Shown piece after piece: positions 6,958-62,012 of a stretch of 64,000 bases of DNA. The DNA is from Strigamia acuminata (taxonomy: Eukaryota). The notes below the pieces were generated by a model. The model did not search any database. It saw only the letters and a program-made list of their open reading frames with translations, and was not told the origin of the DNA. The position numbers and the translations under genes were made by a program. The stretch is from the NCBI GenBank assembly GCA_949358305.1, contig OX442314.1:8246001-8310000 (forward strand), written 5' to 3'. The stretch's first letter is position 1; each line of letters opens with the position of its first letter.

Positions 6958-8035
6958 TGTGGTGACCTCAAATATTCCTATTTGAGTGCGCACCATATTT
7001 CCAAATTGTCTTATAAACATATTCAACAAACTTATATGTTTTGTTTCAATGTAAATTGAAATAAAACATACATTAATAAAATATAAAACAAGACACAATA
7101 TTACCCAAATAATATTGTGTTTTGCAGCAAGTTTTGGCCCAGCAACAGCGTCAACCAATCGCGCTGCAGCGTGCATTGCTTTGATGATGCTGCTAGGCGT
7201 GTGCCTGGGCGGAGCATCCCTTCCCCTCGCGCGTGCCCGGCTCGATTGTTGCACACGACCCGAAGGCGGCCGTGTGTGATCTTCATGCAACTCGTCATCT
7301 GCGCAGCTTTTCTGAGCAGATTTAGAAGTGAGCCAAACGGTTTTGGCCCACTCTTCCCGCACTCTTGATTCCACCTCCAAACTGTTCACAACCGTGTCAA
7401 ACTTCTGCCAAAACTGCAAAGTGTGATCTGTGATTCTTGGACGAATTGAGTTTCATCGCTGGTCTGTACCCACTGTACGGAATAGCAACTTTCTAGCTTG
7501 AATTACTACGAGTAATTTAAGCCATTTCTGTGTGTGAAACTAACATCGAGTTTACTCTGTTAGTTTGAAGGCTTTGTGTCGAGTTTAACTCCACAAGGCG
7601 AATTGTGTTAAGACGGATTGTTACGTCGAGCTTGCTCCGTAATAATCAAATCGCTGTGTGCAAGACGTATTCTCGTGTTGAGCTTGCTCCGCGAGGATTT
7701 TTAGTATATTTTAGCAAAGTATTTTAGCGTCGAGTTTACTCCGCTAAAATCCCGCGCTCACACGACGCCATCGACGCCATTTTGGAGCCAACGGTCAACT
7801 GTGAGTGTCCAAGTACGAAGAGAAACCAGATCGACCCAGTCATTACACTTATTATTTCGCATTATATTCGGGTGTATTTAAAACGATTAAAACAATCTAA
7901 TTTTTCCTTTACTCTGTGTAAAATCATTCCCCTAGACAACCATTTGGCCACAGAGTAGAAGTCCTGTACGGCATCTCACCGACGATTGCTTATTAAATTT
8001 ATATAATTTAATAAGTAAAAACCCGGATCGCCGCA
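6958..8035 (+). repeat. 5' LTR (1078 bp)
   Basis: Direct repeat of 18711-19788. I noticed only one substitution (7478 C vs 19231 G). Confidence 0.95.
7537..7750 (+). promoter_or_regulatory. Array of five bulged stem-loops in the LTR (copy at 19290-19503)
   Basis: Hairpins at 7537-7566, 7571-7599, 7616-7647, 7669-7698 and 7721-7750. Each has an 8-10 bp lower stem of different sequence, a 2-nt UC/UU bulge, and GAGY-loop-RCUC. The function is inferred. Confidence 0.7.
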
Positions 8036-8037
8036 CT

Positions 8038-8055
8038 TGGGGGCCCGGCCGGGAT
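8038..8055 (+). promoter_or_regulatory. Primer-binding site, tRNA-Pro-like
   Basis: TGGGGGCCCGGCCGGGAT begins after a 2-nt spacer (CT) following the LTR. It matches the classical tRNA-Pro PBS TGGGGGCTCGTCCGGGAT at 16/18 positions. Confidence 0.8.
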
Positions 8056-8127
8056 TGTTTTGATTATTAAAATCCGATTTTTGCGAAAAAATCCTTTATT
8101 TCCATTGTTCTTTTTCAATTTGACAAA

Positions 8128-11019
8128 ATGGCGACGCCAATGCAAATTGTAAAACGACAACGAGGTCGACCAAGCACTCAGAAACGAGCAGCGACGGTTT
8201 TGCCGGCTCTCGAGCCTGAAATGCTTATGGAGAAAATTATTTCTGAAGAAATAACACCAGTTCCAGATCCGAAACAACTTAAGGATGCTGAAAATGAAGT
8301 TGCTAGAGCATTAAGCGCTTCAAGTGCGAGTTCTAACGACCAAGAACTCCCGCCACTTCCACTGGAGGAAGTGGAAAATACGTTACGTGAAATGGAAAGT
8401 GAATCGTCTCACGAATCACCTCCTCGCATGACCATGTTGGATGCTTTGAGAAATCAAGCACGCCAAGATGGCGCCCAAATAACGGACGACATGACGGTGG
8501 AAGAGATTCATCGCGCCATGATACGACTTCACACTGACCGAGCCGTTTCAAATTTACAATTTGAAATGGAACGAAAAGAAGCTGAGCTTCAACAACAAAA
8601 AGCGGAGGTTGAGCTTCAACACATGGAACTCAATCGACAAAATGAGGAATTTCTAGCCCAAAAAGCTAGAGAATACAGATTAAAAGGTGAAGTGGAAGAT
8701 CTTTCTAAAATGAATACTAGAAATGAACTTTCAATTCGCTCACACCAAGAGGCGCGAAGACAGCTCGAGCTTACCAAAAGTAAGCTGGAGCAGAAAAATA
8801 AAGAATTGATTGATTTGGCAGACCACTACCAACGCAATCATAATCAACTAGTGAGATATGCTGCTGAATTAGACACACGTGCTAAAACACAGCGTACTCG
8901 CGAAAGCAAAATAGCTAAGCGTGAAGACGAGATTTTCCACTCGCTGGATCAACCCAGTACGAGCGGACAAGTCAAGTCTAGCGGCCCTGCTAAGCGATTA
9001 CAACCAGAATCGCAAAATCAAATAAACGAGAATGAAATTCTCCGAGCTGATTTGTTACGCGCTCAAGAAGAGCTTGCAGAAATGAAAGACCGTTTGCAAG
9101 CAAGAAATTATACTGACCAATTGGTGCAACCAGAAATGGCTGCGCCAACTGTCCCTATTTTGACTCCCGAAACAATAACAATTTCTGTTGTTTCAGAGTT
9201 AAGTAGCCAATCTGGATTATCGAGTGATGACGACCAACGTTCGCGTCGTCGCCATCGCTCAAAAAGAAAACGTCCTTCAGATTCTGAGGAACGGAGAGCT
9301 GATCGCAATCCGCTCCCTGGTAATCGAAACCCTATTTTTCACAACAGTGACCGACTGTTGGGGATAGTAGACGATCGAAATAGACGGCATGAAACTGGTA
9401 TTCATGTTACTCGAACGATACCACTGACTCAACAGCAAGACTCGTCAAAAAGAAGTCGACGAGACACCAATCCAACACGCGAACCGCCGGACGGACATGA
9501 AAGCCCGCCAGGTGGGGGTCAGTATAGAAGAAATCCACCAGATGGAGGAAATCCAGATGGACATGGAGATGGACCACCTGGAGGTGGACGTCGACCGCCC
9601 GACGATGACGGCGACCCACCCGACCCACCTGAAACACCACATTTTAACACGCCTTCAAATTCACAATCTGATTCAAGGTCGGATTCTGATGTGAATGCGC
9701 AACAAGAACGCGATAATCGACATCGATCTCATCGACGTCGACATCGAGGCCATTCTTCTCGGCGTAATACACATTATTACACTGCTGAAGAAATTGATCG
9801 ATTATTAGCTGATCGTCGATCTTCCGATCGATCTGACGCTACTGCCGATAATGCTGATATTGCATTACGACAAAAAATTGCACAATATACTGCCAACAAC
9901 TGGACTCACGATCTAGTTGATGAAAGAACTATTAGATGGGATCACATCAAACCCGCTTTATTCGATGGAGAATGGGAAGCTGGATCCACTCTTTTAGATG
10001 AAGTGTTACGAATTTCAAGGTTGAATGGCATTGCATGTCACACTGCTTTGAAAAGAGTAGTACCAAAAGCTCTTATAGATCGAGCTGAGAAATGGTTTTA
10101 TTCTAAACAATTTCAAAACTGGAATCACTTTGTAGAGGAATTCATGACTGAATATGGGGAGTCAAGTGAAGACTTACTACAAATGTGGGATAATCTTTCT
10201 CAAAATAAAGGCGAAAGTCTTCGCTCTTATTTAAGAAGGACTGAGGATTTATTGGTCACTCTCCCTTATACAATGGGAGATGCAGCCATTGATCGTCAAT
10301 TCCGACGTGGATTGACAGATTATTCAAAAAATGTTCTACTTTCAGTACGAGCACCTTATCCGGGTGGTTTCGCTGAATTAGCCAAATTTATGCGAGCCAA
10401 TCAAATAAGGATTGACGAAAATTATAAAGCTTATCTACCAGCTGATGAAAAAGTTGCGTACGCTAAGCGACAGCAACGGAGAAAGGAATTAGCAAAAGAC
10501 ACACGTTTTGCTAACACCCCTCTTTTGCAACCCCCAAAACGAGGAGATTTTTTGGCAGAGACTGCTAAGGAATCTAAAAAGGGATCGGATGGGAAAAATC
10601 CACATCCAACCCCTAAAGCTCACTTAGCCGAAGTGACTGAAATGGAAACTGCTTCTGAACCAGAGAAATCTGACTCGGAACCAGAAAGCGAGGCTGCAGC
10701 TGCTTTATTAGCCCGTAATAACGCAGTAGCTCGAAAATTTGGACCAAAGATGGCGCCTAAAAACGTTACTTTTGGTTCACCAAAGACAGACGCGCTCAGT
10801 AGATCGAAGTCGCCGACCCCTAAAAAGGACGAAGCCAAACGTTCAAGTTCGCCTTCGCCAAAAGTCGCGAAATCGCCTGCTACTGACCCGTGTAATATTT
10901 GTAAAAAATTGGGACATTGGGCTAAAGAATGTCCTGATAGGAAATCGAGCAAAGACAAGATCATTGAGGAGTTCGAAAAATCGATGAAATCAATCGGCGA
11001 GCTTCTAAAAAACTTGTAA
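8128..11019 (+). CDS. gag: Gag polyprotein (963 aa)
   Basis: CCHC zinc knuckle CNICKKLGHWAKEC. Capsid-like segment LIDRAEKWF..WNHFVEEF..QNKGESLRSYLRR. Long N-terminal coiled-coil-like and low-complexity regions. Confidence 0.92.
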   Translation: MATPMQIVKRQRGRPSTQKRAATVLPALEPEMLMEKIISEEITPVPDPKQLKDAENEVARALSASSASSNDQELPPLPLEEVENTLREMESESSHESPPRMTMLDALRNQARQDGAQITDDMTVEEIHRAMIRLHTDRAVSNLQFEMERKEAELQQQKAEVELQHMELNRQNEEFLAQKAREYRLKGEVEDLSKMNTRNELSIRSHQEARRQLELTKSKLEQKNKELIDLADHYQRNHNQLVRYAAELDTRAKTQRTRESKIAKREDEIFHSLDQPSTSGQVKSSGPAKRLQPESQNQINENEILRADLLRAQEELAEMKDRLQARNYTDQLVQPEMAAPTVPILTPETITISVVSELSSQSGLSSDDDQRSRRRHRSKRKRPSDSEERRADRNPLPGNRNPIFHNSDRLLGIVDDRNRRHETGIHVTRTIPLTQQQDSSKRSRRDTNPTREPPDGHESPPGGGQYRRNPPDGGNPDGHGDGPPGGGRRPPDDDGDPPDPPETPHFNTPSNSQSDSRSDSDVNAQQERDNRHRSHRRRHRGHSSRRNTHYYTAEEIDRLLADRRSSDRSDATADNADIALRQKIAQYTANNWTHDLVDERTIRWDHIKPALFDGEWEAGSTLLDEVLRISRLNGIACHTALKRVVPKALIDRAEKWFYSKQFQNWNHFVEEFMTEYGESSEDLLQMWDNLSQNKGESLRSYLRRTEDLLVTLPYTMGDAAIDRQFRRGLTDYSKNVLLSVRAPYPGGFAELAKFMRANQIRIDENYKAYLPADEKVAYAKRQQRRKELAKDTRFANTPLLQPPKRGDFLAETAKESKKGSDGKNPHPTPKAHLAEVTEMETASEPEKSDSEPESEAAAALLARNNAVARKFGPKMAPKNVTFGSPKTDALSRSKSPTPKKDEAKRSSSPSPKVAKSPATDPCNICKKLGHWAKECPDRKSSKDKIIEEFEKSMKSIGELLKNL

Positions 11020-11052
11020 GCGCGCATCCAGACGGTCTAGTGGATGCGACGC
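11007..11052 (+). promoter_or_regulatory. -1 programmed ribosomal frameshift signal (gag-pol)
   Basis: A_AAA_AAC heptamer in the gag frame (11007-11013), followed by the hairpin CGCATCCA (11023-11030)/TGGATGCG (11041-11048). The -1 frame is open into pol (..KLVSAHPDGLVDATP). Confidence 0.85.
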
Positions 11053-14000
11053 CTACCGCCTCGGAAAATGAACTAACACCATCTCAGATTTTAGATGAAT
11101 TTTTAAATACCCAGATTAAATTAGAATTAGAAAATAATTTAGTATTTCCAAAAATTGATGTTTCCAGTTTAAGGCTTGTGCTGCAAAATGAAAACATCAC
11201 TGAAGAATTTTTTAAAGAAAAAGTTCAACAAATAAAAGTTGATTGGGAATCTAAAATAAAAGATGCTGTTACTTTACTAGATGGAAAAGCTAGGCCCACA
11301 CCTGAAATTGTTGAAAGGTCAGGTAAAATTGATTTACCTGGTCTTGATGAATGCATTGAAAAATTAATGGCTACAACGCTAGTCACTAATGATTTATTGG
11401 ACGAATTACCATTGGATCCGCCAATAGAAATTAAGCCACCGCGACGTTTTAAATGCAAGTACGCGGACATACCAAACAGCAATGATTTGCCGACGATTCG
11501 ATTGCAGACGGCAAACGGTATGATAACAGGGATGTTAGACTCTGGAGCTAATCGAAGCTTCATGGCCTACTCCGTAGTAATTTCGCTGAAACTGGAAGAT
11601 GAAATTCGACCAATAGGACCGGATGTGAGAGTTACGACTGCTTCAGAAGATGTAGTCCCTGAAGGGACTCTCCTACTTTCTTTTGCATGGACACACGGGA
11701 TGTTAAGTCATCCATTCATAATTTTAAGAAATAAATATCCTATTATTTTATTAGGATGTGATTTCATGAATCGACTCAATATTCAACCAAATCCTAAGAC
11801 CATGTCTTGGAATTTTGTCAAGTCTTTGAAAGAAGATTTACCTTTTGTTCCTCAAGCGATTCTTGATCGTTATCAAGAGTTTCTTGATCCACCCGAAGAA
11901 ATCATGAAACGCGACTTTATTAAAGCAAATCACATGAAAGCTGGTTCCGCCACTGCATGTCAAGCTAAAGTTGCCGATGAAGAAAATATAGTACAAAGAC
12001 TTGTTAGGGATGCTAATTTGTCAATGGAAAATAATTTAATGCTTGAAAAAGTATTAAAGAAACATGAAAAGATTTTATCTCGCCGACCAGGTAGAACACA
12101 CCTCGTTAGGCATGAAATTAAACTGGACACTAAAGTTCCTATTAGAGTTCCGTTTAAAAGCGTAAATCCACAGAAACGTGAAATTATCCGTCAAATCTGT
12201 CAAGATATGTTGGATAATGGGTACGTCGAACAAGCCACTGGAGACTATGGAATGCGAATAGTTCTAGTGATGCGTCCGGATTGTGATCCGAGACTCTGCA
12301 TTGATTTTAGACCACTCAATGCACATACATTATACGATTTTCCTCAAATGCCGAGCATTGAGGAAATCTTGCGAGAACTCGGAAGATTTGAATGGGTCAC
12401 AACGATAGATTTGTCAAAAGGCTATTGGCAGATAGAGGTTCATCCGAACGACCGTGCTAAAACTGCGTTTTGGAGCCCTTTGGGTCGACTACAATTTCGA
12501 GTCATGCCCTTTGGCCTCGTAAATGCACCGTCAACTTTTCAAAAGTTGATAGAGAAGATTTTGGGGGACGCCTATCGAAAATTCGCATGGGCATACCTCG
12601 ATGATATAATTATTATATCAAAAAATTTTGAAGAACACATGATTCATCTGGAAGAAATTCTGAGTAAACTTGAAAATGCAAATCTTCATGTTCATCCAGA
12701 AAAATCAAAATTTGGCAGAAAAGAATTAACTTTTCTTGGCTACAAGTTAAGTGTTCACGGAGTTAGTGTCGACCCTAAAAAAGTCGCCGCCATTAAAGAA
12801 ATGCCAGCTCCTTCAAATTTGAAAGAGTTGCAAAGATTTTTGGGAATGGTGAACTTTTTTCACCGATTACTTAAAAATCTGGCAGTAATGACAGAACCTC
12901 TACGTCCTTTACTCAAAAAGGATGTGGAATTTATTTGGTCAGAAATTCATCAAGAAGCTTTTGATCAAATAAAAGATGCTTTAACGAATGCAGAAACAAT
13001 GGCCATGCCTGATTTGACAGAACCATTTATTGTGCATACCGACGCCAGCAGAAAAGGACTAGGCGCCGCGCTTATGCAAATGAGAGAAATCGATGATCAA
13101 AATATCGAAGTGCCTTGTGTTTATGCCAGCAGAAGTTTACAACCTGCTGAGATAAATTACAGCGCCACAGAATTGGAGTGCCTAGCGGTAATCTGGGCAT
13201 TACGTAAATTTCGACATTATTTGGAATTTACAACATTCATAGTAAGGACTGACCATCAAGCATTAAAATGGTTGATGCAGTTGGACGAACCTGCTGGAAG
13301 GTTAGCGCGTTGGCAAATGGAGCTAATGCGCTACTCTTTCGAAATACAATATATTAAAGGTCCACTAAATGTTTTAGCGGATGCTTTATCCAGATCACCG
13401 ATTGATAAACCAGAAAATCCTGAAGATGATGGAGATAATGACGAATTATTATCTTACTGTCCATCACCACAACGAAAATGGAAAATGGGAAAATTCCATG
13501 AGCTTCCTGTCTCCACATTAGAGGAAAAGGAAGATCATGAATTCGTCAACTATTGGACTAAAATTTATGACTCCTCTGAGGAATCAGATGACGTCATAAG
13601 AGCGCAAATTTCAAGGAAATTCCAAGTTCCTTCGTCAAATGTTTTAATAAAAGCATTTGTCGCCAAAATTGTAGAACGTCTTGATTGTGAACCTCCCACA
13701 AGGGAAGACATAATCAAGGCCCAAAAAGAAGATAAAGTTTGCCAATTGATGCGTAATTTTTTAAATTGTAATCAATTTCCGCCTGACGTCACAACGCGAC
13801 TCCAGAGGAAACAATATAGAAAACACGCAACCACCTTCTTAATTGAAGATGACTTATTAATGCAATTTCATCCCACAATGTCTGATGAATTGGGGGAGGA
13901 TGGGAGAGCACTCAAAGTTTTTGTACCTCAGACATTGAAGTATAAAATTATTTGGCTGATGCATGGCCACCCACTTTCTGGCCACCCAGGAATTGCAAGG

Positions 14001-15488
14001 ACTCTTTATCGAGCACGCCGAATTTATACCTGGAAAGGCATGAAATCGGACATTACGAGATTCATTCGACATTGTGAGCGTTGTCAAGCTTGCAAACCTC
14101 GAACGAAAGGACAAATTGAAGCAGCGCAAATGGGTCCTTACAGCCCATTTGACTGTCTAAGTGTTGATTTGACCGGCCCAAAACCTCGGACGCGCAAAAA
14201 CAACACACATATTTTAGTCATACTTGATGTGGCAACTCATTGGCCAGAATTATATCCAATGTGTAACCCCACTGCTGGAAAAGTAGCAAATTGCATTTAT
14301 CACCTTTCCATGAGCATGGGATTCCCTCGTAAAATTATTTCTGACAACGGCCCGCAATTTCGTGCCCAAGTCTTTAAAAAATTTTGTGAAAAGTTCAAGA
14401 TGGTTCCAACACCAACTTCAACGTATCACCCACAAGCTAACCCGGTTGAAAGGGTTAACCGTGACATCAAATATTTGGTTGCAATTTATTCATCTGTTCA
14501 TTCCAAATGGGACGAATATTTGCGTGAATTTGCATTTAGTTTGAGAACTACGGTGACGAGAGGAAGAGACTTCTCTCCCGCATTTCTTAACTTTTTTCGC
14601 GAACTCAGAGTACCTTGGGATCCAAGAATACCTGAAGGAATTTTGGTCGTAGATCCAAAAAACCCACATTTATACGTGCAAAAATTAGAAGCCGTTATCG
14701 CCGAAACATATCAGCACATGATGTCGCACGTGTTAGATTTGCGTAGACGAGTTAATCTTAAAAAAGAAGGTGAGAAGTTCTCCAATTTTAAATTAAACGA
14801 TTTAGTTTGGAGAGATTCTCATGTTTTGTCGAGCGCTGCCCGCGGCATTGCAGCTGGCATCGCTGATAAAAGAACAGGACCTTATGTAATAACCAAAGTA
14901 TTACAGGGAGGTTCAGTAGAATTGAGAAAGCTAGAAAATAACGAAATATTTCCAGCTGTCCATTCGTCTGAATTAACTCCGTATTTCCCGAGTTTCGACC
15001 AGGAAGTATGGTTAGAAGGCGAAGAAGTCGGTCAAAAGACTGAAAATATAATTAATACGTTAGATGACGATGAATTAAAGAAAATACCTGTCGATAATTC
15101 ATCCAAACCACAAATGGAGTCAGACCTCGTGAATAACGACGTTGAACTTCGTGACAGTTTCAAAAAGCTTGAAATTGCTAAAAAAATAAATAAAAAGGTG
15201 TTTTTAGAAAAGAAACAAAAAACATCTGAAATAAAAGACTCATCTGACTCAGTCTCCGATGACAATGAAGACGGCGATTTAAATACAATAAATCCCTCGC
15301 CGACAAAGAGATATAATCTTCGGACTCGTAAACCGAGAGGAAAAAACAACATGTGTCTTCTCCCCTCGATAACCTCGAGATCCAGGGATCAGCCGTATGA
15401 CGTAAGGAGCAATTCCTCAAGCCATACTCAAACCAATCAAACAGTAAGATTGGATGACGTCACTAACAGCGACGTTACCCAAACGTAA
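11013..15488 (+). CDS. pol: Pol polyprotein (protease, RT, RNase H, integrase), expressed by frameshift
   Basis: LDSGA aspartic protease; RT IDLSKGYWQ..MPFGL..YLDD; RNase H TDASRKG..ELECLA..TDH..ADALSR; integrase H..H..CERC, D..D(SDNG)..E and GPY motif. No stops. Confidence 0.97.
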   Translation, partial: LVSAHPDGLVDATPTASENELTPSQILDEFLNTQIKLELENNLVFPKIDVSSLRLVLQNENITEEFFKEKVQQIKVDWESKIKDAVTLLDGKARPTPEIVERSGKIDLPGLDECIEKLMATTLVTNDLLDELPLDPPIEIKPPRRFKCKYADIPNSNDLPTIRLQTANGMITGMLDSGANRSFMAYSVVISLKLEDEIRPIGPDVRVTTASEDVVPEGTLLLSFAWTHGMLSHPFIILRNKYPIILLGCDFMNRLNIQPNPKTMSWNFVKSLKEDLPFVPQAILDRYQEFLDPPEEIMKRDFIKANHMKAGSATACQAKVADEENIVQRLVRDANLSMENNLMLEKVLKKHEKILSRRPGRTHLVRHEIKLDTKVPIRVPFKSVNPQKREIIRQICQDMLDNGYVEQATGDYGMRIVLVMRPDCDPRLCIDFRPLNAHTLYDFPQMPSIEEILRELGRFEWVTTIDLSKGYWQIEVHPNDRAKTAFWSPLGRLQFRVMPFGLVNAPSTFQKLIEKILGDAYRKFAWAYLDDIIIISKNFEEHMIHLEEILSKLENANLHVHPEKSKFGRKELTFLGYKLSVHGVSVDPKKVAAIKEMPAPSNLKELQRFLGMVNFFHRLLKNLAVMTEPLRPLLKKDVEFIWSEIHQEAFDQIKDALTNAETMAMPDLTEPFIVHTDASRKGLGAALMQMREIDDQNIEVPCVYASRSLQPAEINYSATELECLAVIWALRKFRHYLEFTTFIVRTDHQALKWLMQLDEPAGRLARWQMELMRYSFEIQYIKGPLNVLADALSRSPIDKPENPEDDGDNDELLSYCPSPQRKWKMGKFHELPVSTLEEKEDHEFVNYWTKIYDSSEESDDVIRAQISRKFQVPSSNVLIKAFVAKIVERLDCEPPTREDIIKAQKEDKVCQLMRNFLNCNQFPPDVTTRLQRKQYRKHATTFLIEDDLLMQFHPTMSDELGEDGRALKVFVPQTLKYKIIWLMHGHPLSGHPGIARTLYRARRIYTWKGMKSDITRFIRHCERCQACKPRTKGQIEAAQMGPYSPFDCLSVDLTGPKPRTRKNNTHILVILDVATHWPELYPMCNPTAGKVANCIYHLSMSMGFPRKIISDNGPQFRAQVFKKFCEKFKMVPTPTSTYHPQANPVERVNRDIKYLVAIYSSVHSKWDEYLREFAFSLRTTVTRGRDFSPAFLNFFRELRVPWDPRIPEGILVVDPKNPHLYVQKLEAVIAETYQHMMSHVLDLRRRVNLKKEGEKFSNFKLNDLVWRDSHVLSSAARGIAAGIADKRTGPYVITKVLQGGSVELRKLENNEIFPAVHSSELTPYFPSFDQEVWLEGEEVGQKTENIINTLDDDELKKIPVDNSSKPQMESDLVNNDVELRDSFKKLEIAKKINKKVFLEKKQKTSEIKDSSDSVSDDNEDGDLNTINPSPTKRYNLRTRKPRGKNNMCLLPSITSRSRDQPYDVRSNSSSHTQTNQTVRLDDVTNSDVTQT

Positions 15489-15698
15489 CTTCCGGTATTT
15501 GAACTGATCACTTCGCGTCTGAGTTCACTTCGATCTCACACGTGTGCTAAGTGCTCATCCCCAAAAAACCAAAAGCGAAACAACTGGATTATTTCAACGG
15601 GATTCTTCAATTGTAAGTAGTTTTTTCTTTGGAATTTTCCAAGGAAAAACTAATAAATTAATTTTCGTTTTTCTTTTCCATTTGGATTAGTCGTTCAA

Positions 15699-18536
15699 AT
15701 GGAAGGAGAGGAACCGAAAGAAGGAAGCGAAGCCGGCGCCAACAGCCTCGAATTAGAAACAAATTCGACGCTGCTTGGTTCCGCAAACACTTCGAATGCA
15801 TCCGTGGATGTCACCGAAGAGTCCGCCGAAGCGTCCGCTGAAGCTCAAGCCGCTCTAGCCGACGCTGCTGCCCGTTTGCCAGTCACGCCGTCTCAGCCCC
15901 GACTTCGAGGAGGCCTATTCGCCGATCCAAACGGCGAAACTCGTGCACAGAGACACGACCGGGTAAATAATTTAAAATAAAATTACCTTTCAGTCATGAA
16001 AAGTAATTAAAAGTGCATTTTCACTCCGAAAAAGCAAAAAGTTCGTTGGTAACGCCTTCGCAAGAAGACGCCGCCATTATTATCATCAGATGGCGCTGTG
16101 TCTCATTTTTGAGGCGTTGCTACGGTAACGCTCCAAACACTGAAACATAGCCGTCGGAAACAACGTTTTTTACGATTTTTCAAATATTTTGAAAAAATTT
16201 AATGAATCTAAACTGTCGAATGAAATCTCACCCGTGATTTTATTCACTGAAAATTCGGAAATAATTATTTTACACGAAAAAATGGATTTTAATTATTTCT
16301 TCGAATATTTTTACAGATTATCCAGCTTCGGGAGACGCATCTCGAACTACACCCCGATGTTCCGACCGCTCCTGGTGTCTGGCGACACGCATTGCCGCCA
16401 GAAATCATAAAGTCGAAAGGACGACTGACGTTTTGGGCGGCCCGACACAAATTCTCCAAGGCCTTAAACAAGCGATGGGGAACGAAGTTTCGGATCGCCT
16501 ATTTAATCGATGGATTCGGTCATCGCGACGCCCTCGAGTGGGCAATGAAGCGCGACACCTTCGGACCACTGCGAAACGTGTTGCTCGACTTCGCCTTCAC
16601 AGTGATCGCACAAGAAACGCGAGACCATCGCCGTTACTTCAACGCTCCTGCATGGGAGCGTCGACAGATTTTGGAGGACATTTTCCAACGCTTGGATCAA
16701 ACCAAGGCCGAGGTTGTACGCCTCTACAACGAATCTTTCCGTGTAACAACGGACGGAAAGAAACGTTGGGTGCCGACATGCCAGTCGGAGATGCATCAAC
16801 TAGCCATGGGCGGATGTTTCCATGCAGATTTCGTGCCGAACCCGTATCCAGAGCCTGAGCCCCGGGTACAGGTCGCTTCCACCATCCACGTGGTGCCACC
16901 GCGCTCCACGTCGAGGTCACGATCATCGAGGTCGCCCTACAGTGGCCGTCGCTCCTCCCCAACACAGTCGTCGGGGGAAGGCGCCATTGGAGGGTTACCT
17001 CCACTCCAGAAGGCTCGTCATCGCTCACATCACCGACGCGAGCCGACGCCGCCGAAAAGACATTCGAAGTCCGTATCGAGACCCACATCCCGAAGCCGAC
17101 CTCGAGTGCAATCGCGTCAATCTTCCACGAGGAGTTCACTCTCGTCGCGTGAAGAACGATCCAACGCTTCACAGCTTACCGCTTCCTCCTCCGGCCGGAT
17201 TGACTGGTCGGACGAGATAGCGAAGGAAGATCAACGCATCGCCGCATTGCAAGCCGGTCAGGGAGACGTTAACACCTCTTTGCCGTTCGCTTGCCGTCCA
17301 GTCACCAGCGACATGCGACCAGATCCATCGGTGCCCGTGCCACAAGTGACATCGGTCATCCGTTTTGAGGGATACGTCTCTCACGAACCATTTCCCGCAC
17401 AGGAGTGCGCTGATCTCTGGAGGCGATTCTCATCGTTTCCCGAGACAGCCCAAACGATGTACCTCGCGCATCTGGACGAATACCAACTCGCTCAGATCCG
17501 CGAAGGTGAGAAGGAATGGCAATGGCTTGCGCGAGAGCTTACGTCGTGCAAGTCCGACAAGCAACTGCAACGGACGCTGCAGAAGATGAACAGGAAGTTG
17601 TCGGAGGGACTTCTTCGAATCCTGTTCCAAGGAGTCTTTCCCGACCCACAGATTGCTCTGGCCGCCGCCACTCGATTGTGGACCGTGCCGCTAGGGCTTC
17701 CACGAGCCTTGCTGGACGATTGGGAGTCAGTTCGCCCCGATCCTCCAACGATGCTCGCCGAATTGACGCAACAAGCCGAGGCGACTGGCGAAACTCCGGC
17801 TGGATCCGCCATTCGACTACGGCAGGAATGGGCTGCGCTGAAGCAGCGACGCACAGCAGAACGAGCCACCGCCCGTCCCGCTGGCGCACCACCGTCATCC
17901 GCAGCTCCACTCCACGCTGCCATCACGGCAACGTCGAGTGTTTCCCGTGCGACCGAGGCACCGAGTTGCAACATCTCGTCTCCGATGGAATGGCTCGACA
18001 GCGACGATCGCGAGTTCGTCGTGCCTGTGGCCTGCGGTGCCAGACCAAAGACGCGCACCCCGGCTTTACGCAGATCCAGATCCCTCTCGATCTGCAAGAA
18101 GTCGCCGCCACCGCCGCCTCCTCCAAAGGATTCGCCGCCAAGAGATAGGGGATCGAGTATGGCCACCCACCTCACCGCCTATCAACGTTTGCGCTCATTA
18201 TACGCCTTTTGCTACATAACGAGCGCAACGAAAACGATTCTCCAGAACAGCGAGGATTTATGCAACCGAGTCCTCGCGTGGCTGGAAAACCACATCAAGG
18301 AACAGCAGCCGTGGATCCTGCATCAACGCCTGGTGTTCGCTCGAATTACGCCTCAAGACCCGCAGGAGTACTTCGAGATGGGTTTTGGACGAAGGGATGG
18401 TGTGGACCGCATCAAGCAAGTGTGGCTCCACATCAACCCTGGCTTCCGGTCAGGACCAAACGCCGGCCGACCTTTGTGCACCGTCACCGAGCACAAAGAT
18501 CCAAACGATCATTCGACGGACATGTTGCCGAAATAA
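15699..18536 (+). CDS. ORF3, spliced non-env accessory protein of unknown function (~827 aa; exons 15699-15962, 16317-18536)
   Basis: A phase-0 donor CGG|GTAAAT at 15962 and acceptor TTTTACAG|ATT at 16317 join the 93-aa and 714-aa ORFs in frame. The frame is open from 16317 to 18536. There is also a probable 5'UTR intron at 15613-15690. Confidence 0.72.
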
Positions 18537-18696
18537 TTAGGGAACACGCCCGTTTATTAAAAATGATTCCTTTTTTATTTTTATATTGTAATGAAAAAGA
18601 ATAAATATATATCCTGTTTCATTTTACTTTGAAACCTTGTGTATTTATTCCTATACTTACCTGTCTCTTTTTGGAAAAGAATAAGATTCTTTCTTA

Positions 18697-18710
18697 AAAG
18701 GGGGGGGAAG
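18697..18710 (+). promoter_or_regulatory. Polypurine tract
   Basis: AAAGGGGGGGGAAG immediately precedes the 3' LTR. Confidence 0.9.
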
Positions 18711-19788
18711 TGTGGTGACCTCAAATATTCCTATTTGAGTGCGCACCATATTTCCAAATTGTCTTATAAACATATTCAACAAACTTATATGTTTTGTTTC
18801 AATGTAAATTGAAATAAAACATACATTAATAAAATATAAAACAAGACACAATATTACCCAAATAATATTGTGTTTTGCAGCAAGTTTTGGCCCAGCAACA
18901 GCGTCAACCAATCGCGCTGCAGCGTGCATTGCTTTGATGATGCTGCTAGGCGTGTGCCTGGGCGGAGCATCCCTTCCCCTCGCGCGTGCCCGGCTCGATT
19001 GTTGCACACGACCCGAAGGCGGCCGTGTGTGATCTTCATGCAACTCGTCATCTGCGCAGCTTTTCTGAGCAGATTTAGAAGTGAGCCAAACGGTTTTGGC
19101 CCACTCTTCCCGCACTCTTGATTCCACCTCCAAACTGTTCACAACCGTGTCAAACTTCTGCCAAAACTGCAAAGTGTGATCTGTGATTCTTGGACGAATT
19201 GAGTTTCATCGCTGGTCTGTACCCACTGTAGGGAATAGCAACTTTCTAGCTTGAATTACTACGAGTAATTTAAGCCATTTCTGTGTGTGAAACTAACATC
19301 GAGTTTACTCTGTTAGTTTGAAGGCTTTGTGTCGAGTTTAACTCCACAAGGCGAATTGTGTTAAGACGGATTGTTACGTCGAGCTTGCTCCGTAATAATC
19401 AAATCGCTGTGTGCAAGACGTATTCTCGTGTTGAGCTTGCTCCGCGAGGATTTTTAGTATATTTTAGCAAAGTATTTTAGCGTCGAGTTTACTCCGCTAA
19501 AATCCCGCGCTCACACGACGCCATCGACGCCATTTTGGAGCCAACGGTCAACTGTGAGTGTCCAAGTACGAAGAGAAACCAGATCGACCCAGTCATTACA
19601 CTTATTATTTCGCATTATATTCGGGTGTATTTAAAACGATTAAAACAATCTAATTTTTCCTTTACTCTGTGTAAAATCATTCCCCTAGACAACCATTTGG
19701 CCACAGAGTAGAAGTCCTGTACGGCATCTCACCGACGATTGCTTATTAAATTTATATAATTTAATAAGTAAAAACCCGGATCGCCGCA
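18711..19788 (+). repeat. 3' LTR (1078 bp)
   Basis: Direct repeat of 6958-8035. Confidence 0.95.
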
Positions 19789-21849: not shown

Positions 21850-22188
21850 ATGAAATATCTCATCATCTTGGTTTTTGTTATTCTGTCGTGCATGGGTAAG
21901 TTATATTTTGCACAAAAATAATTCATTCATCAGTGAGCATTGACATGTTTCTTTTTTTGGTTAGCAATGATGAATGGCCACAGACATAGTGGGTACGGCG
22001 ATAGATATGAAGGGTACGGCGATAGATATGAAGGGTACCGCCATAGACATAAAGGGTACGGCCATAGATATGCAAGTAGAGGATACGGTGACGCGGTCTG
22101 TAATATTGAGAGATGCATGGAAAATTGTAAGCTTAGAGGTTGGAGCGGTTATTGTGTAAGAGGTTACTGCAACTGCAGATATCCCTAG
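21850..22188 (+). CDS. Secreted CS-alpha/beta defensin-like peptide 4 with Gly/Tyr/Arg/His repeat extension (89 aa; exons 21850-21895, 21965-22188)
   Basis: MKYLIILVFVILSCMAMMNG-HRHSGYGDRYEGYGDRYEGYRHRHKGYGHRYASRGYGDAVCNIERCMENCKLRGWSGYCVRGYCNCRYP. Same gene structure as the paralogs. Confidence 0.88.
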
Positions 22189-23625: not shown

Positions 23626-23697
23626 TAGCAGAGGATGGTTTCGATCCATCGGCCTCTGGGTTATGGGCCCAGCACGCTTCCACTGCGCCACTCTGCT
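23626..23697 (-). tRNA. tRNA-iMet(CAT), eukaryotic initiator
   Basis: AGCAGAGTGGCGCAGTGGAAGCGTGCTGGGCCCATAACCCAGAGGCCGATGGATCGAAACCATCCTCTGCTA. A1:U72 pair, GGG/CCC anticodon stem, ATCGAAA T-loop, and a downstream oligo-T terminator. Confidence 0.96.
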
Positions 23698-35900: not shown

Positions 35901-38900
35901 TATCAAAAATTCTAGTTAAAATTTAACAATTATCAAAAATTCTAGTTAAAATTCAACAATTATCAGAAATTCTTGTTAAAATTCAACAATTATCAAAAAT
36001 TCTAGTTAAAATTCAACAATTATCAGAAATTCTTGTTAAAATTCAACAATTATCAGAAATTTCAACAATAAATGAAAATGTTTTTATTTATAAACTTTAA
36101 CAAACGATTTAAAACAAGTAAGCTTTAAATTTAGCCGTACTTGACTGCCGCTATCTCTTGTTTGTCTAAATACCTCAGTTTTGCTCACAAACTGTTTACC
36201 CACACGGCGTTATCATACCATTCCACACGGCACAAACTCCAAAACAAGACCATTCACCGGACACTGATGACGCTATTAATTAGACCAATCAGCACCATCC
36301 AGGTGCTCAACCTTTAATTGCTCGTTCTCTTAAAGCAGGTCAAAGAAACAATTGTCTCATGCACAAAACTAAAACCAGTGTTGAACGAAAGTAACAAACA
36401 AAACATAAAATACAAAGAGAAAATAGAAAAACAAGCAGTAAAAAAATAAACAACCAAATTAAGAGAGATAATGCGAGTACAGAATTAATGGAAGATGACA
36501 TTTTGAAAAAAGTATCAGCACAATGTGCAAACTGTGGTGCAAACTCACGTCTTACCTTTTTCTTTGATCCACTAAGATATTCTTTGTACATCTCTGAGCG
36601 CAAATACCTCGAATAACTATCAGTCTTCATAAGTTGATAAACATGAGCCTTTAAACACAAATATATAACATCAAATTATTTTAATTCCCATTGCAGCCAG
36701 GTGTGGTGAGATGAGGTGAGGTGAGGTTAAGTCAGGGGTCGGCAAGTAATTTTAAGTGGGGTCCGGATACTATTGAAAATTTTTATCGAGGCCCAGACAA
36801 AAAAACTCATAATACTACTTACTAGTTTTAAATTTTTATTTTTTGACTCATTTAAGTAATTATATAAAACACAATTCTTAAAAATTATTGCACGTAATTA
36901 CACCCTACACCTTTGGCAGTCCAAGTTTCGACCTTCAGTGGTCCGGATACGGATGCCGACCGCTGGGTTAGGTTAAAATGTCAATAAATGTCGAAATAAT
37001 GACCGTCTAGCAAATGACTGGGGAACAAACGATACTACTTCGACTATGTTCATGTCCGACATTAACGTATTATTTTAATGACATGTTGTGATTGGTTGAG
37101 ATCTATTGATGTCGGTTCGTTTCCTAAACGCACGTTTTCGAGGTTTTATCTTCTTTTTTTGTCATGTCGGACATGAACGTAGCCACTTTGTATACAGTAG
37201 TTATACTCTAACCAACTACACGTTGGTCCTTTCTCCCATTGGTCGAGCCTCATTACTCCGACTGTACTGCCACTAGGAAAAGTATTTTTTTTATTTTTTT
37301 TATTTTGTGGCTTATTCTAATGATAAAAATGATGAAATTTTATTTGTATTTTATAATAAAATGTTTTTTCCATTCATGAAATAAAGTTTTATGCTGTTTT
37401 TAATTCATCATACATGTTGGTTTAGTTTATTGGTTGCTTTGTCCGAAAAGCAAACAATGTTTGAATTTTTTCCATTACAATGTCTGTACAATGTCTGTAC
37501 ATCAATTCTGGGAGAAAGAACCAAGTTGTAGTTGTAGAGTATGATGCTGACGTTATCTCAACATTTTTATGTTGTATAGGGACTTAAGAAGTTTTAATTT
37601 TCATCAATACAATTTTATTTTATCCCATTGATGCATTGAAGTGACACCACAAAACCAAAACACAAGCATCTAAAAATCGACTTTTTGAAAGCAGCCTATG
37701 TAATGAATTAGGTGTCAAGTCAGTGAAATCCCTAGGAGTATAGGGCATCCGGTCTTGAGCGGTTTCCTCTAGTCCGGAAATAGACAAAAAAGAAGCTAAT
37801 ATCCTGTCTGGAGGAACTGAATATTAAATTAAGTGGCAATGATTAAAAACTAAAATCAGATAAAGCCGCACTTACGTTATGGCAAACAAAAAGAGTTACC
37901 ACCAATTCCACCCTAAAGCGGTACGGTGGAAACAGAAGAGAGCGGGTAAAATTTAAAAGCTGGCTTTTACTTGAAAACGCAGCTAAAAACTCACCTGCTT
38001 GAGCAAACACAAGCCTGCGTTTCCATCACAGCTTTGCTTTGAAGCCAGTTTGTACTCACTCGCTCCAATCAAACTGAGTTTGATATACCAGCAAGTTAAG
38101 CGACGCGAAACAATCACTAAAAACCAACTGGAATTTTACCCGCTCCCTTGTGTTTCCACCTTTAAACGGGAAGAAGCAAGTCAACTTCAAAAGCTTGCAG
38201 GTTACCGTTACCGTTACCGATACCTATAGCAGCTTGCTGCTTAAAGCGAGGTAATATGGTAAGACATTAGAGAGTTTGCGGGATGTATTTTTCCCTTACA
38301 GTTAAAGACTATACAGTATAAAAATAGTGTAAGGAAAAAATGATAAATTAAGTTTTTGCGGGCTGCACTTTTCCCTTATCACTACACTATTTCAGCCAAC
38401 TACTGACAGTTAGTTATTTTGGACCTAAAAATTCAATTTGGGGACGTAAATGTGCAAATTTCTGCATAAAATTCCATTATTATGCCTATAAAGTATGGTT
38501 TTGGGCCTAAAATTCAATTTAGGGCCTCACTTATCATTCAATCTCCGTACCTATGACTGTGATGTGTTTGATCGGGACAACAAAATAATCGCCATTTGCA
38601 ATGGGCGGAGCTTAAAATTTAGTGTTCTCAATTCTGATTGGCTGCGCTATATTTTAATTTAGTGTTGAAAACGATACACTAAAGATTTTTCCCTTACGAT
38701 ATGGCACTAAAATAGTGTAACGTGGCACAAAATAAGGGAAAAATGCATGCCGCAAACTCTATTAGAAAGCCGCATCTGGGGCCCAGGACAGAAAACGGAA
38801 TGTGGGCAACTTCAAAAAAGGCAATTAAGGGGTTCAAAAGAGCCTTAAACATGAGTCCAAAGCAGGTTATTCTTTTGTAATGCTTACAGTTGCTTCATCA

Positions 38901-44900: not shown

Positions 44901-47900
44901 TCAGATGAACGATCAACACTTACCTTAGCGCTTTTAATCGGTTTGTTCATCCGACACGCCTTCTTTATATCAATTTCCGTCGTATTTACGCAACCCGGCT
45001 GCAATTAAAAAACAATAATAATCACACTAATTACCAAACAATTGATTAGTGTTTATTTCATGTCACCGCTAATGAGCACTTATCATATTATACAAGACAT
45101 AAATCATAATGCAAAAATGGCTTAAATTTAATTAGAATTATGACATTAATGCATTAATTTACTCATTTGGAGTGAGTCAAGTGTCAACTACGGTAGGATG
45201 CACAGCCAATATAATAGGTGCATTCAAAGGGTGTTTTGACTGTTTTAAGAATTTCTATGAACAGAATGGACACCAAAAACAGCCATAATACCTAGAAAGT
45301 TTAAATCTAGTTCTGGTTCTTGGTGCGAACGCATCTAGTCCAAAATTAGGGGTTTCTTCATTTCGTCGCCCTTCATTTCGTCGCCGTGTCATTTCGTCAC
45401 CAAAAACGGCGACGAAATGACACTCAAAACGGAAAAAGGGCGACGAAATGAAGGGCGACGAAATGAAGGGCGACGAAATGATATGGTTGAACAACCAAAA
45501 CAACCAAAACTGAACAGAAGGGCGACAAAATAACACGGCGACGAAATGAAGGGCGACGAAATGATACGGCTAAGTAGCCGAAACAACCCAAACTCAACAC
45601 GAAGTGGTGGGATTAAAAAAGGAAATGATGGCAAACTTATGGCACTATAATGGCAAAATTATGGCAAAATTGTGACCAAATTGTGGCCAAATTCTGACAA
45701 ACTTGTGGCGAAATTATGGCCAAATTCTGACAAACTTGTGGCGAAATTATGGCCAAATTCTGACAAACTTGTGGCGAAATTATGGCCAAATTGTGGCCAA
45801 CTTGTGGCTAAATTCTCGCAAACTTGTGGCCAAATTGTGGCTAAATTGTTGCCACAACAATAACATGGCGACAAAATGATATGGCGACGAAATGATATGG
45901 CGACGAAATGATATGGTGACGAAATGATATGGCGACGAAATGATAGGCGACGAAATGATAGGTTGATGAAATGAGGGCGACGAAATGAAAAAAAATTTTT
46001 AAAAAAAACATTTAGCAAAAAAAAGTATGAGGGCGACGAAATGAATGACGACTAAATGAAGTGACTTCTTAACAAAGTAAAGGTGGCACAATCTTTTGCC
46101 TTTGCCATCTAGTACTTTCACTTTTTTTTCTATTACAGTAGTTCAAGATTTTTATTTTGTCAATCCATCATGTTTCTTGGTGCACATTTTCCAAGTCTTC
46201 TATGTTCTCATTTGAGATCTTGACCCTATGAACCCACCGCTGCACTACAAGAAGTTCTTGCACATGCTTTAAACCAATACAACATAAGGTTTCAAGCTTG
46301 TTCTTTACCCTTAACATGTAAAAGCTATTAGCAACAATACTATGAACATGTTGGTTTAAACACCATCACATTAATTGTCAAATGTGATGAAGCCAACACA
46401 GTTCAATAAAACACGTTGGATTGCAATTACAAGCGGTGGGAAAGAGGATCTCCAACAGTAAATCTTCTTTACATTACAGCTATAATAGGTAAGCTAAGTG
46501 GTGTAATATTGACTCTACAAGAGGGGTTGGATCAAAAAATGGCTCACTGTTGACTTAACTAGATAAATAATAAATACAACTTCTAAGCCCGGCAGTAAAC
46601 AGAACTGAGTAAATACGAAGCTTCCGTATCGCACTTTGCAGACCTTGCAAATTTTGTTGTTCTGGGCCTTGCTAGATGCAACTACCGTATGTCTTCGATT
46701 CTTCGACGCCATTGATTGTGAGACGCACCCCGCATCTTTAAATGCCAATCACTAGCAAGTACACTTTTAAAGTGCTTCATTTTTGAGTATTCACACTCTG
46801 TACTGTACTATACTTTGGCTAACTATAAGGTTAGCCTTTCTCCCATTGGCCAAGCCATTTCACCTGTGTAGTGATACAAACAAATAAACCAAAACACTAG
46901 AATTGTAATTGATGTACAGACATTGTAATCGATTGTCTAGGTAACGACAAAATATTCAAAATTGTTTGCTTTCCAGACAAAGCAATCAATAAACTGAACA
47001 AACTTGTGTTGAATTAACCCTCAGATGGACAATCTCCAAAGACGACGCTTTGGTGCCCACAACGTACCGATTTGGGTGCAAAATAATTAAATAAAAAAGG
47101 CCCGTAGCTGAAGCGCTTTAGGATAGTGCGAAAAATTGTCGCACTTGGAGCTACTGTAATCAATTAGTTTTTTGCTTGGCGCACGTGCCATACAGGACTA
47201 CTAGCGCCATACGGCGTCTACTGGTAAAATTTGAAAGCACTTAGTAGAAGCGCTTTTATAAGATTGGGAAAAGCCAACTTAAATTTAAGCTGGAATTTCT
47301 AAGGGGCAGAATTTTAAAAGGTGAATAAATAAATAAATAACGTACAGAACACTCCACATTTTTTTTACACAAACTTTTGTGTTGTGTGAACAAAGTCAGA
47401 AATTTTCAGAAAATTATATTAAGCCAAAAAAAAGATTTCCTATTCAAGAAGAGTGTTGCACCCAAATAGGTATAGGGTTGTCCATCTGAGGGTTTAAAAC
47501 AACATAAAACTGTATTTTATAAATGAAAAAAAAAATATTTTATTATAAAATACAATTAAAATTTTATCATTTTATCCATTATAATAATCACAAAAAAAAA
47601 TACTTTTCCTAGTGGCAGTACACAGTCTACAGTTAGGAGTAATGAGGCTCGGCCAATGAGAGAATGGCCAACCTTATAGTTGGCCCGACTATACATCAAC
47701 TGATAAATTTCTAGTGGAGATTATTCCTATCGTTAACGTTCATTTTACAAACGAAATAGCAGATGCCAATTTTTTTAGATTTTTATATTGTTTCCTTTGA
47801 GAATGTGATAAAAACTCACTCACAAGGGGAGGGCACCAATAAGCTATCACAGATTGTTGTAATATTAAACAAGAAGGATTGTTATATCATGCTGAATGAG

Positions 47901-61991: not shown

Positions 61992-62012
61992 TTAGTCACA
62001 AAAATGTACTTA

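Follow-up and report, generated by a model that had tools for sequence, protein, structure and literature searches.

The question raised by this locus, which lies in a window of 64,000 nucleotides of Strigamia acuminata DNA, is whether an invertebrate retrotransposon could steer its own RNA in the manner of complex retroviruses. The nuclear exit and capsid entry of intron-bearing RNA remain largely an open question for LTR retrotransposons, and an earlier note had proposed a Tat/TAR- or Rev/RRE-like circuit here, from the co-occurrence in one young element of a spliced accessory gene with Arg-rich segments, retained introns and an LTR array of bulged hairpins. At this locus lies an intact Ty3/gypsy retrotransposon with paired LTRs, gag, a frameshifted pol and a third gene, ORF3:

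6958..8035, + strand: 5' LTR, 1078 bp, TG..CA, delimited by comparison with the 3' LTR
8038..8055, + strand: primer-binding-site-like stretch, starting TGG 2 nt past the LTR, which we take to be tRNA-Pro-like
8128..11019, + strand: gag, 963 aa, open frame with capsid and CCHC knuckle (Pfam Retrotrans_gag, zf-CCHC)
11007..11056, + strand: predicted -1 frameshift site, slippery heptamer and downstream stem-loop
10968..15488, + strand: pol, open frame in the order PR-RT-RH-IN (Pfam)
18600..18605, + strand: AATAAA, 3' of the ORF3 stop and 5' of the polypurine tract, a putative poly(A) signal
18696..18710, + strand: polypurine tract
18711..19788, + strand: 3' LTR with the second copy of the array

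Within the TG..CA limits the two LTRs are identical at 1077 of 1078 positions, with a single mismatch, and no clean target-site duplication was found around the element. Ends at AGT..ACT were also considered and rejected, TG..CA with two extra inner bases being preferred. The direct LTRs, the primer-binding site and polypurine tract, and gag followed by a PR-RT-RH-IN pol are those of Ty3/gypsy elements (Metaviridae); RT, RNase H and integrase score above the Pfam cut-off and protease below it. The RT-RH relatives share at most 46% identity, no relative was returned by the RT-RH search of viral contigs, no match by the Gag word search, and none in other species by the libraries searched; blank homologue searches for ORF3 and Gag show little, since the lineage is simply undersampled. 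The primer-binding-site-like stretch had no match in the seven supplementary files of PMC13524379. A flanking exon matches RGS6/7/9, an animal-type gene.

The array of the earlier note is confirmed. Each LTR carries five bulged hairpins, at 7537-7750 and 19290-19503. By folding, those of the 5' LTR are:

7537..7566, + strand: H1, 9-bp lower stem, UC bulge, GAG/CUC upper stem
7571..7599, + strand: H2, 8-bp lower stem, UC bulge
7616..7647, + strand: H3, 10-bp lower stem, UC bulge, GAGC/GCUC upper stem
7669..7698, + strand: H4, 9-bp lower stem, UU bulge, GAGC/GCUC upper stem
7721..7750, + strand: H5, 9-bp lower stem, UC bulge

All five combine a paired lower stem that differs from one hairpin to the next with a UY bulge and an upper stem that is G-C/A-U/G-C throughout; past the fourth upper pair, 2-3 U-rich bases are left as apical loop; the pair under the bulge is G-C in four of the five, and the pair probability of H1 in its LTR context is at least 0.97. 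Not even once did the strict motif appear in dinucleotide shuffles of the LTR (0/5000). In the lower stems, 60 of 61 cells are paired and 7 of 13 pairs are changed on both sides, a level seen in 0/500 shuffles, these pair counts being inflated in that the hairpins are paralogues and the very source from which the structure was read. The core is unchanged in 5/5 hairpins despite the divergent lower stems, and the fourth upper pair covaries (U-A in three, C-G in two). Among other copies of the element, viewed as short contigs from two runs (X1 and X2) of one study, 0/35 core positions vary, and variants number 5 in 151 hairpin nucleotides vs 11 in 63 spacer nucleotides (P=0.0008), a depletion inflated to the extent that short contigs differing inside a hairpin may drop out or align to a sister hairpin; over the whole 391 nt it is weak (P=0.08). 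Two H1 variants break pairs on their own, compensation for them, read by eye, being seen only in a single loose end.

These repeats could act as DNA, either through a transcription factor that recognises them as interrupted palindromes or as single-stranded hairpins in reverse transcription, having arisen by tandem duplication. GAG-N4-CTC is indeed such a palindrome, and the antisense strand folds well too, better over the region than the sense strand (z-score -3.74 vs -2.68). Hairpin by hairpin, H2-H4 are stabler on the sense strand, H1 is equal on both and H5 is slightly stabler on the antisense strand, while four G-U cells favour the sense RNA. Since duplex DNA recognition leaves unexplained both the G-U pairs and the compensatory changes in the divergent lower stems, and Tandem Repeats Finder reported no array at the hairpin region, a DNA-level role is very improbable.

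Read as RNA, the invariant bases of the array are those contacted by Tat arginines in TAR, where a bulge U is followed by G-C, A-U and G-C (PMC1524922, PMC6189040, accessible parts), which renders an arginine-motif/RNA switch plausible in an element with a spliced third gene. By analogy with the TAR and 7SK structures, each hairpin would form a base triple and bind arginine. The arginine might instead come from the host, the array imitating 7SK and binding a HEXIM-like motif so as to bring in or set free P-TEFb at the LTR without any viral Tat. Stem-loop 1 of 7SK contains four arginine-sandwich motifs, one of which, ASM3, is identical in secondary structure to the TAR bulge (PMC6189040, in the text available), and a convincing Tat-like protein is absent from the ORF3 main frame; but the 7SK motifs are packed into one helical turn and not spread over separate hairpins, and Rfam gave no TAR or 7SK match at E<=5 (two chance miRNA matches only), so that this host mimicry is distinctly unlikely. 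In viral contigs a scan with the hairpin pattern found 7 loci, and in metagenome contigs 119 (52 of 64 parts covered), with gag, pol, ORF3 or LTR similarity in 0/126; the divergent-stem array was absent from the four loci with two or more stems.

The candidate partner put forward first was ORF3, whose gene region is organised as follows:

15489..15612, + strand: predicted upstream exon or internal promoter region, no ATG
15613..15690, + strand: candidate intron 1, GT..AG, 78 nt, predicted from splice signals and low GC (0.24)
15699..15962, + strand: ORF3 coding exon 1, 88 codons, acidic
15963..16316, + strand: intron 2, GT..AG, 354 nt, phase 0
16317..18536, + strand: ORF3 exon 2, 739 codons

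Joined, the coding exons give 827 codons, and intron 2, if retained, introduces 10 in-frame stops. It is skipped exactly in a single contig (28 letters on the short side) of X1, a run from another sample, and in none of the X2 contigs listed; the summed depth is about 69,000 over the bin, nearly all of which retains the intron, vs 506 for the skipping contig, depth not being equal to copy number. As intron 2 is spliceable, overlaps no gag or pol codon and is mostly retained, unspliced RNA seems to be favoured for replication. Of the 'retained introns', intron 1 is a prediction. Gag-to-ORF3 fusion donors at 8780 (phase 1), 8851 (phase 0) and 11016 (phase 2), the last a GTAAG donor-like site overlapping the gag stop, suit some acceptor by phase only; neither an intron 1 joint nor a fusion joint was present among the 15 joints listed of 33. 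ORF3 is under purifying selection, 7 of its 8 listed variants being synonymous (P=0.003).

Could the ORF3 main-frame protein then bind the hairpins on nascent RNA and trans-activate the LTR as Tat does on TAR? It shares one element with the array, the upper stems of H3 and H4 have the four pairs of TAR (PMC1524922, in the part consulted), and the protein is selected, soluble and has basic linkers. An env-bearing errantivirus reading, which would call for a signal peptide, a transmembrane segment and fusogen similarity, was rejected, the protein having no hydrophobic segment (maximum 19-residue hydropathy 0.5 and 1.1) and an acidic N-terminus. Yet the cyclin-T1 loop is missing, TATA-like words stand at 7012 and 7082, more than 450 nt upstream of H1, the sole strict Inr word at 7924 is downstream of the array, and the 827-residue protein shows neither a Tat-like basic cluster nor a Cys cluster: its Cys are scattered and its basic tracts are Ser/Arg low-complexity stretches with at best 4 Arg in 9 and 6 in 17. 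Its patterns resembling the leucine-rich export signal (NES) that a Rev-type regulator would carry, five loose matches, do not exceed the 5.2 expected from shuffling. Such a Tat-like role is distinctly improbable. The array, lying upstream of the LTR ATTAAA words or downstream of the early TATA-like words, is likely transcribed in either LTR layout.

As to what ORF3 is, exon 2 is predicted to form three helical domains separated by Ser/Arg and Pro linkers. No homologue of it was found in Pfam, by word search, by HMMER over 1.84 billion representatives or among PDB sequences, and the ESM Atlas gave no match for the whole exon or residues 344-523. Single-sequence folds reach a pLDDT of 40 for the whole exon and 67 for the middle domain, and fold searches returned generic helical matches only (best Z 6.6, rmsd 4.3, 107 aligned, and 7.7, rmsd 4.9, 102 aligned), together with BAK1 (Z 5.8, rmsd 3.9, 106 aligned). 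The C-terminal domain weakly matches Pfam Bcl-2 (PF00452; E 0.013-0.045, 14.7-16.5 bits vs a cut-off of 31.4), covering half of the profile, a match that came from about ten trimmed fragments. A 7rdr match in the phmmer search of PDB was rejected as a repeat artefact.

The Bcl-2 match bears on the possibility that the array and ORF3 are unrelated, the hairpins acting in cis without any element-encoded arginine ligand (in 3'-end processing, translation or strand transfer) and ORF3 being a cassette picked up separately, provided with a promoter and poly(A) site of its own and modulating the host (anti-silencing or anti-apoptotic). GC3 is 0.61 in ORF3 exon 2 vs 0.31-0.33 in gag and pol, Inr-like and E-box-like words occur in the ATG-free upstream exon, and the AATAAA precedes the polypurine tract; besides, BCL2-like motifs are described in planarian Burro gypsy elements (PMC6431247, available part) and separately transcribed extra ORFs in plant and rotifer elements (PMC7264820, PMC5408684, likewise). 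However, a purely structural role would not need the invariant bulge-U/GAG-CUC core in five copies, and the Bcl-2 match, below cut-off, disappears with the whole exon as query (Pfam, E<=1), no Bcl-2 chain being returned by phmmer of PDB at E<=10. The ORF3 half of this explanation fits our preferred one too, and as a whole it is of low probability. The main frame is best taken to encode a working accessory protein, for which a tie to the array is unlikely.

Nothing beyond the shared element joins ORF3 to the hairpins, and denser arginine is found elsewhere in the same element:

9238..9297, + strand: Gag Arg/Lys tract 1, 7 Arg in 12 aa, NLS-like run, candidate ligand
9718..9768, + strand: Gag Arg/His tract 2, 8 Arg in 17 aa, candidate ligand
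15692..16858, + strand: candidate overlapping frame across intron 2, about 270 codons, found post hoc

Gag reaches 5 Arg in 9 and 8 in 17, above the ORF3 tracts. The overlapping frame has one stop in this copy and no ATG in exon 1, where its part is about 30% Arg (26-27 Arg and 5 Cys in 90 codons); against the strictest null, its longest run anywhere gives P=0.053, its Arg excess P=0.09 and exon 1 alone P=0.24. Judged from its composition, this exon 1 frame may be a better Tat/Rex-like candidate than the ORF3 main frame, at a borderline level, and the array's binding partner is more likely Gag or the overlapping frame than ORF3 itself. What holds of the original proposal is the anatomy of a young element, with a likely spliced ORF3 under purifying selection and five hairpins that bear the Tat-contact motif; the plural introns and the Arg-richness of ORF3 hold in part.

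The reading we favour, at a little under an even chance, is that the element encodes an arginine-rich motif which binds the array and directs unspliced RNA towards export or packaging. The five hairpins would be a multivalent landing pad, a number that would fit an oligomeric binder; the ligand would most likely come from the tracts in the N-terminal part of Gag or from the frame that overlaps ORF3 exon 1, and its binding would tag full-length RNA that still carries the intron, in a Rex/Rev/CERV-like way and not as a Tat-type elongation switch. Since the LTR array 3' of ORF3 could also sit on spliced mRNA, it need not discriminate unspliced RNA. A bolder form, in which a TAR arginine-sandwich motif evolved independently, fivefold in the LTR, with its own Arg/Cys-rich ligand in a spliced frame overlapping an orphan gene, as a complex-retrovirus-style RNA switch outside Retroviridae in an animal Ty3/gypsy element, has a low though appreciable probability. 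Were the binding confirmed, the TAR-type arginine pocket would be a convergent or ancient solution, beyond lentiviruses, and the element would offer a natural orthogonal peptide-RNA pair; as the candidate ligands are short peptides, direct testing is feasible.

No TAR-motif array was found in the open literature searched. Osvaldo is reportedly described with TAR- and RRE-like sequence similarities. The primer-binding site of the present element is presumably Pro-like. Osvaldo-like elements, in contrast, prime on tRNA-Lys, while the Osvaldo lineage of animal Ty3/gypsy also has a long LTR (997-2055 bp vs 1078 bp here) and the 5' end of the present element fits the TGTGGYG motif of CsRN1, another such lineage (PMC3286476, PMC3601003, accessible sections). 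With the extra ORFs of plant and rotifer retrotransposons (Grande gene23, Retand and the bdelloid ORF3s), the present ORF3 shares a non-env position between pol and the 3' LTR; such additional ORFs are kept in most copies, often with unknown function and sometimes with their own promoter, whereas ORF3 runs in sense, is interrupted by a spliceosomal intron and has no recognised domain, and the available parts of PMC7264820 and PMC5408684 make no mention of a bulged-hairpin array.

TAR and the array have in common the U-first pyrimidine bulge, G-C/A-U/G-C above it and the LTR location, and HIV-2 TAR the two-base bulge as well; the array differs in its five separate hairpins, its 2-3 base loop instead of the G-containing six-base cyclin-T1 hexaloop, and its mostly G-C pair below the bulge (TAR features from the accessible parts of PMC1524922 and PMC6189040). 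TAR stands at the 5' end of the nascent RNA, in the R region; the promoter words of the present LTR are ambiguous in this respect. Tat is small and combines a dense arginine motif with a Cys-rich activation domain, unlike the ORF3 main frame. The HTLV-1 RexRE is located in the 3' LTR, and Rex/RexRE and MMTV Rem/RmRE likewise pair a spliced regulatory gene with a folded RNA element, which lies in the 3' LTR or overlaps it, for the unspliced-RNA export that is proposed here, RexRE and RmRE being single branched structures as opposed to a modular array (PMC12789967, in the part available). As in Rev-, Rex- and CERV-type systems, the element has a spliced gene and intron-bearing genomic RNA (from one contig, with a putative regulatory role) and a predicted structured element in that RNA.

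That such regulation is not standard for Ty3/gypsy elements, as had been supposed, is outdated: a spliced export factor is already known in CERV of C. elegans Cer1, required to export unspliced RNA (PMC10309623, available text, as for what follows on CERV). CERV and ORF3 are both large spliced accessory proteins with three predicted domains and flexible linkers, have no homologues outside their own clade and come with genomic RNA that retains splice sites; a search of the libraries showed no sequence similarity between them. CERV has exons in common with gag and requires a Cys loop, whereas ORF3 is placed after pol and ahead of the 3' LTR and has an ATG of its own. Finally, CERV demonstrates that the protein can do the export, no RNA response element being defined in that account, whereas here the candidate site is sharply defined, as a 30-nt module in five natural variants.

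The interval 6958-19788 is one intact Ty3/gypsy LTR retrotransposon, bounded by two LTRs that start with TG, end with CA and differ from each other at 1 of 1078 positions. A primer-site-like stretch beginning with TGG lies just after the 5' LTR and a polypurine tract just before the 3' LTR; no clean target-site duplication is found at the two ends of the element. The annotated features are as follows.

6958-8035, plus strand: 5' LTR
15699-15962, plus strand: exon 1 of ORF3, the third gene, between pol and the 3' LTR (open frame from the ATG at 15699, 88 codons)
15963-16316, plus strand: intron 2, inside ORF3 (GT..AG, 354 nt, phase 0; splice signals, skipped in one contig)
16317-18536, plus strand: exon 2 of ORF3 (open frame, 739 codons, 827 aa in total)
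18711-19788, plus strand: 3' LTR
7537-7750 and 19290-19503, plus strand: H1-H5, the array of five bulged hairpins in each LTR (sequence and folding; LTR offsets 580-793, array end 288 nt upstream of the primer site)
23626-23697, minus strand: tRNA-Met gene

The gag frame is open and encodes 963 aa with Retrotrans_gag and CCHC matches in Pfam, while pol, also open, matches reverse transcriptase (RT), RNase H (RH) and integrase, its protease match falling below the cut-off. In the overlap of the two genes lies a slippery heptamer with a stem-loop downstream of it. Since identity to the nearest RT-RH relatives does not exceed 46%, and a word search with Gag returned no relative, the lineage is poorly sampled. 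None of the 126 loci sharing the hairpin pattern in the viral and metagenome contigs scanned is related to the element.

Two public sequencing runs of one study, X1 and X2, each hold a contig joining both flanks across the insertion site, thereby representing the empty site. The flank of this contig (6710-6957 and 19796 onward) differs from the window at 28 of about 250 bases, whereas many element contigs are at least 99% alike, which indicates that the element is more recent than the divergence of its flank. Besides, an X1 contig with a depth of about 1825 links 13646 to 15820 (gap 13647-15819), suggesting a multi-copy derivative with an internal deletion that removes integrase and the start of ORF3. 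As to the host flanks, a minus-strand exon at 36343-36675 resembles the RGS domain end of RGS6/7/9, which makes an animal host probable, and a short plus-strand frame at 21937-22188, without Pfam match, carries Gly/Tyr/His repeats and ends in a six-Cys pattern that is presumably defensin-like. A dispersed repeat of about 1 kb occurs in three copies (47806-48823, 60949-61967 and 61997-62991), another in two (38313-38612 and 55992-56291), together with many AT-rich satellites of 20-30 bp units, e.g. at 54052-55103.

Among the 24 coding variants found in the best-supported 40 of 412 variants between copies, 7 of 8 in ORF3 are synonymous, compared to 33.5% expected for transitions (P=0.003); the figures are 4/5 for gag and 10/12 for pol, one site being counted in both. 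The 12 listed of 44 indels include none in the ORF3 exons and two in intron 2, and low-depth contigs of about 80-85% identity also cover ORF3. Taken together, these sequence data argue that ORF3 is a maintained protein gene. The prediction, of low to moderate confidence, is a fold of three helical domains joined by linkers rich in Ser/Arg and Pro; an Env identity was rejected, no hydrophobic segment being present. The accessory gene put forward in the earlier note thus stands as spliceable and maintained, but its arginine-rich character is limited, in its main frame, to RS-type stretches (at most 4 Arg in 9 residues and 6 in 17, with scattered Cys). Gag is denser, reaching 7 Arg in 12 residues and 8 in 17 N-terminal to its capsid domain, and contains NLS-like runs.

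Intron 2 is AT-rich, is flanked by GC-rich exons and contains 10 in-frame stops. Exactly its 354 bases are missing in one X1 contig, and no skipping is seen among the X2 contigs listed. Since X1 and X2 contigs also cover the intergenic flanks of the element, this one contig, whose shorter arm at the joint spans 28 letters, probably represents a genomic copy derived from spliced RNA. Of the introns said to be retained in the genomic RNA, intron 2 thereby gains support, while intron 1 (15613-15690), like the upstream exon without ATG, is predicted only.

ORF3 also differs from its neighbours in GC3 (0.61 vs 0.31-0.33 in gag and pol), promoter-like words occur 3' of pol and AATAAA lies 5' of the polypurine tract. 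These features suggest that ORF3 is a separately acquired cassette, and it may have its own transcript. It could also be independent of the array, the hairpins acting in cis without ligand, a reading that we consider unlikely and towards which a lead below the Pfam cut-off points, namely a weak Bcl-2 match in the C-terminal domain (18165-18350, plus strand, E 0.013). The link between ORF3 and the array is unproven; the orphan gene itself is real.

The LTR array announced by the earlier note is borne out. Each hairpin has a lower stem of 8-10 bp, a UC or UU bulge and then a GAG:CUC pairing; in 5000 dinucleotide shuffles of the LTR sequence the strict motif never appears, while 25 of them contain one loose motif, and the remaining plus strand of the window has none. 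The lower stems differ in sequence, yet 60 of 61 cells are paired, with both-sided changes in 7 of 13 pairs, counts that are favoured by the derivation of the structure from the same five hairpins. The first and last bases of the loop covary as well (U-A three times, C-G twice). Over 391 nt, 26 variants at 24 positions are listed for the other copies, of which 5 fall in hairpins (151 nt), 11 in spacers (63 nt; P=0.0008) and 8 in flanks; the depletion, which short-contig mapping bias may inflate, has P=0.08 against everything outside the hairpins. None hits the 35 core positions, three leave the fold intact by themselves (one at the second base of the bulge, one turning G-U into A-U and one turning a terminal G-C into G-U) and two in H1 disrupt pairs singly, with compensation only in one loose-end contig. 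The RNA motif is real and unusually clean. G-U pairs point to the sense RNA; the antisense strand, however, has the better z-score over the region and a slightly more stable H5. That the repeats would be DNA-level sites is, beside the paired but divergent stems, highly improbable. At window 19284, loose ends suggest that some copies have an H2-like hairpin, added or moved, 5' of H1 as well as further loop variants; array order or number seems to differ among copies.

Besides Gag and the main frame of ORF3, a third candidate ligand was found post hoc. It is a stop-poor, arginine-rich frame (15692-16858, plus strand), one base ahead of ORF3, running from the 15690 acceptor across exon 1 and 180 exon-2 codons; this copy interrupts it with a single stop, where the copies vary. 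Third-position T is rarer where it would create a stop in this frame (1/47 vs 15/63, P=0.0009), and the exon-1 part has about 30% Arg and 5 Cys. The rest of exon 2 is stop-poor in this register as well, including a second stretch at 17510-18604 (plus strand). Under the strictest null, however, the 5'-anchored run has P=0.007, the longest run at any position P=0.053, exon 1 by itself P=0.24 and the Arg excess P=0.09. With no ATG within exon 1, the frame would need either an upstream exon in phase 2, supplied by the predicted exon 0 (15489-15612) or through the donor-like site where gag stops, or a non-AUG start, and its translation is doubtful though plausible. The GTAAG at 11016-11021 (plus strand), overlapping the gag stop, fits its phase; splicing there would drop pol.

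The most economical reading, to which we give slightly less than even credence, is that an element-encoded arginine motif would load onto the five hairpin sites, and that the loaded array would commit full-length RNA to export or packaging, since the array is multivalent, the cyclin-T1 loop is missing and a spliceable intron persists. As this intron is kept although it overlaps no gag or pol codon, unspliced RNA is probably favoured for replication. Such an architecture, which the earlier note did not know as standard in Ty3/gypsy elements, has a precedent: CERV, a 517-aa protein that the gypsy element Cer1 makes from a spliced RNA, is required for genomic RNA export (PMC10309623), and additional ORFs located after pol and before the 3' LTR are common (PMC7264820, PMC5408684). 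The architecture thus has known counterparts. The literature searched yielded no gypsy LTR with a fivefold array of the TAR motif. An Osvaldo paper reportedly mentions TAR- and RRE-like similarities.

An Rfam search with the array gave neither a TAR nor a 7SK match, arguing for a shared motif rather than family membership. Tat arginines touch G26 and G28 of TAR and sandwich U23, itself in a triple with A27-U38, and 7SK has four motifs of this kind (PMC6189040). Mimicry of host HEXIM/7SK by the array is quite improbable. PMC1524922 gives U23 and the pairs G26-C39 and A27-U38 as critical, a two-base bulge for HIV-2 TAR, an upper stem from G26-C39 to C29-G36, and a six-base loop read by cyclin T1. 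Compared to TAR as there described, the invariant bases of H1-H5 are those critical or contacted by Tat, and H3 and H4 have the full four-pair upper stem, whereas the six-base loop is absent. Besides, TAR has to occupy a 5'-terminal position within R (PMC12789967), while the promoter words here permit placement of the array in U3 or in a long 5' leader. True Tat-like activation by ORF3 is accordingly rated as decidedly improbable. With the same invariant bases and the loop missing, the hairpins are predicted to resemble TAR in binding an arginine-rich peptide, but not in recruiting P-TEFb.
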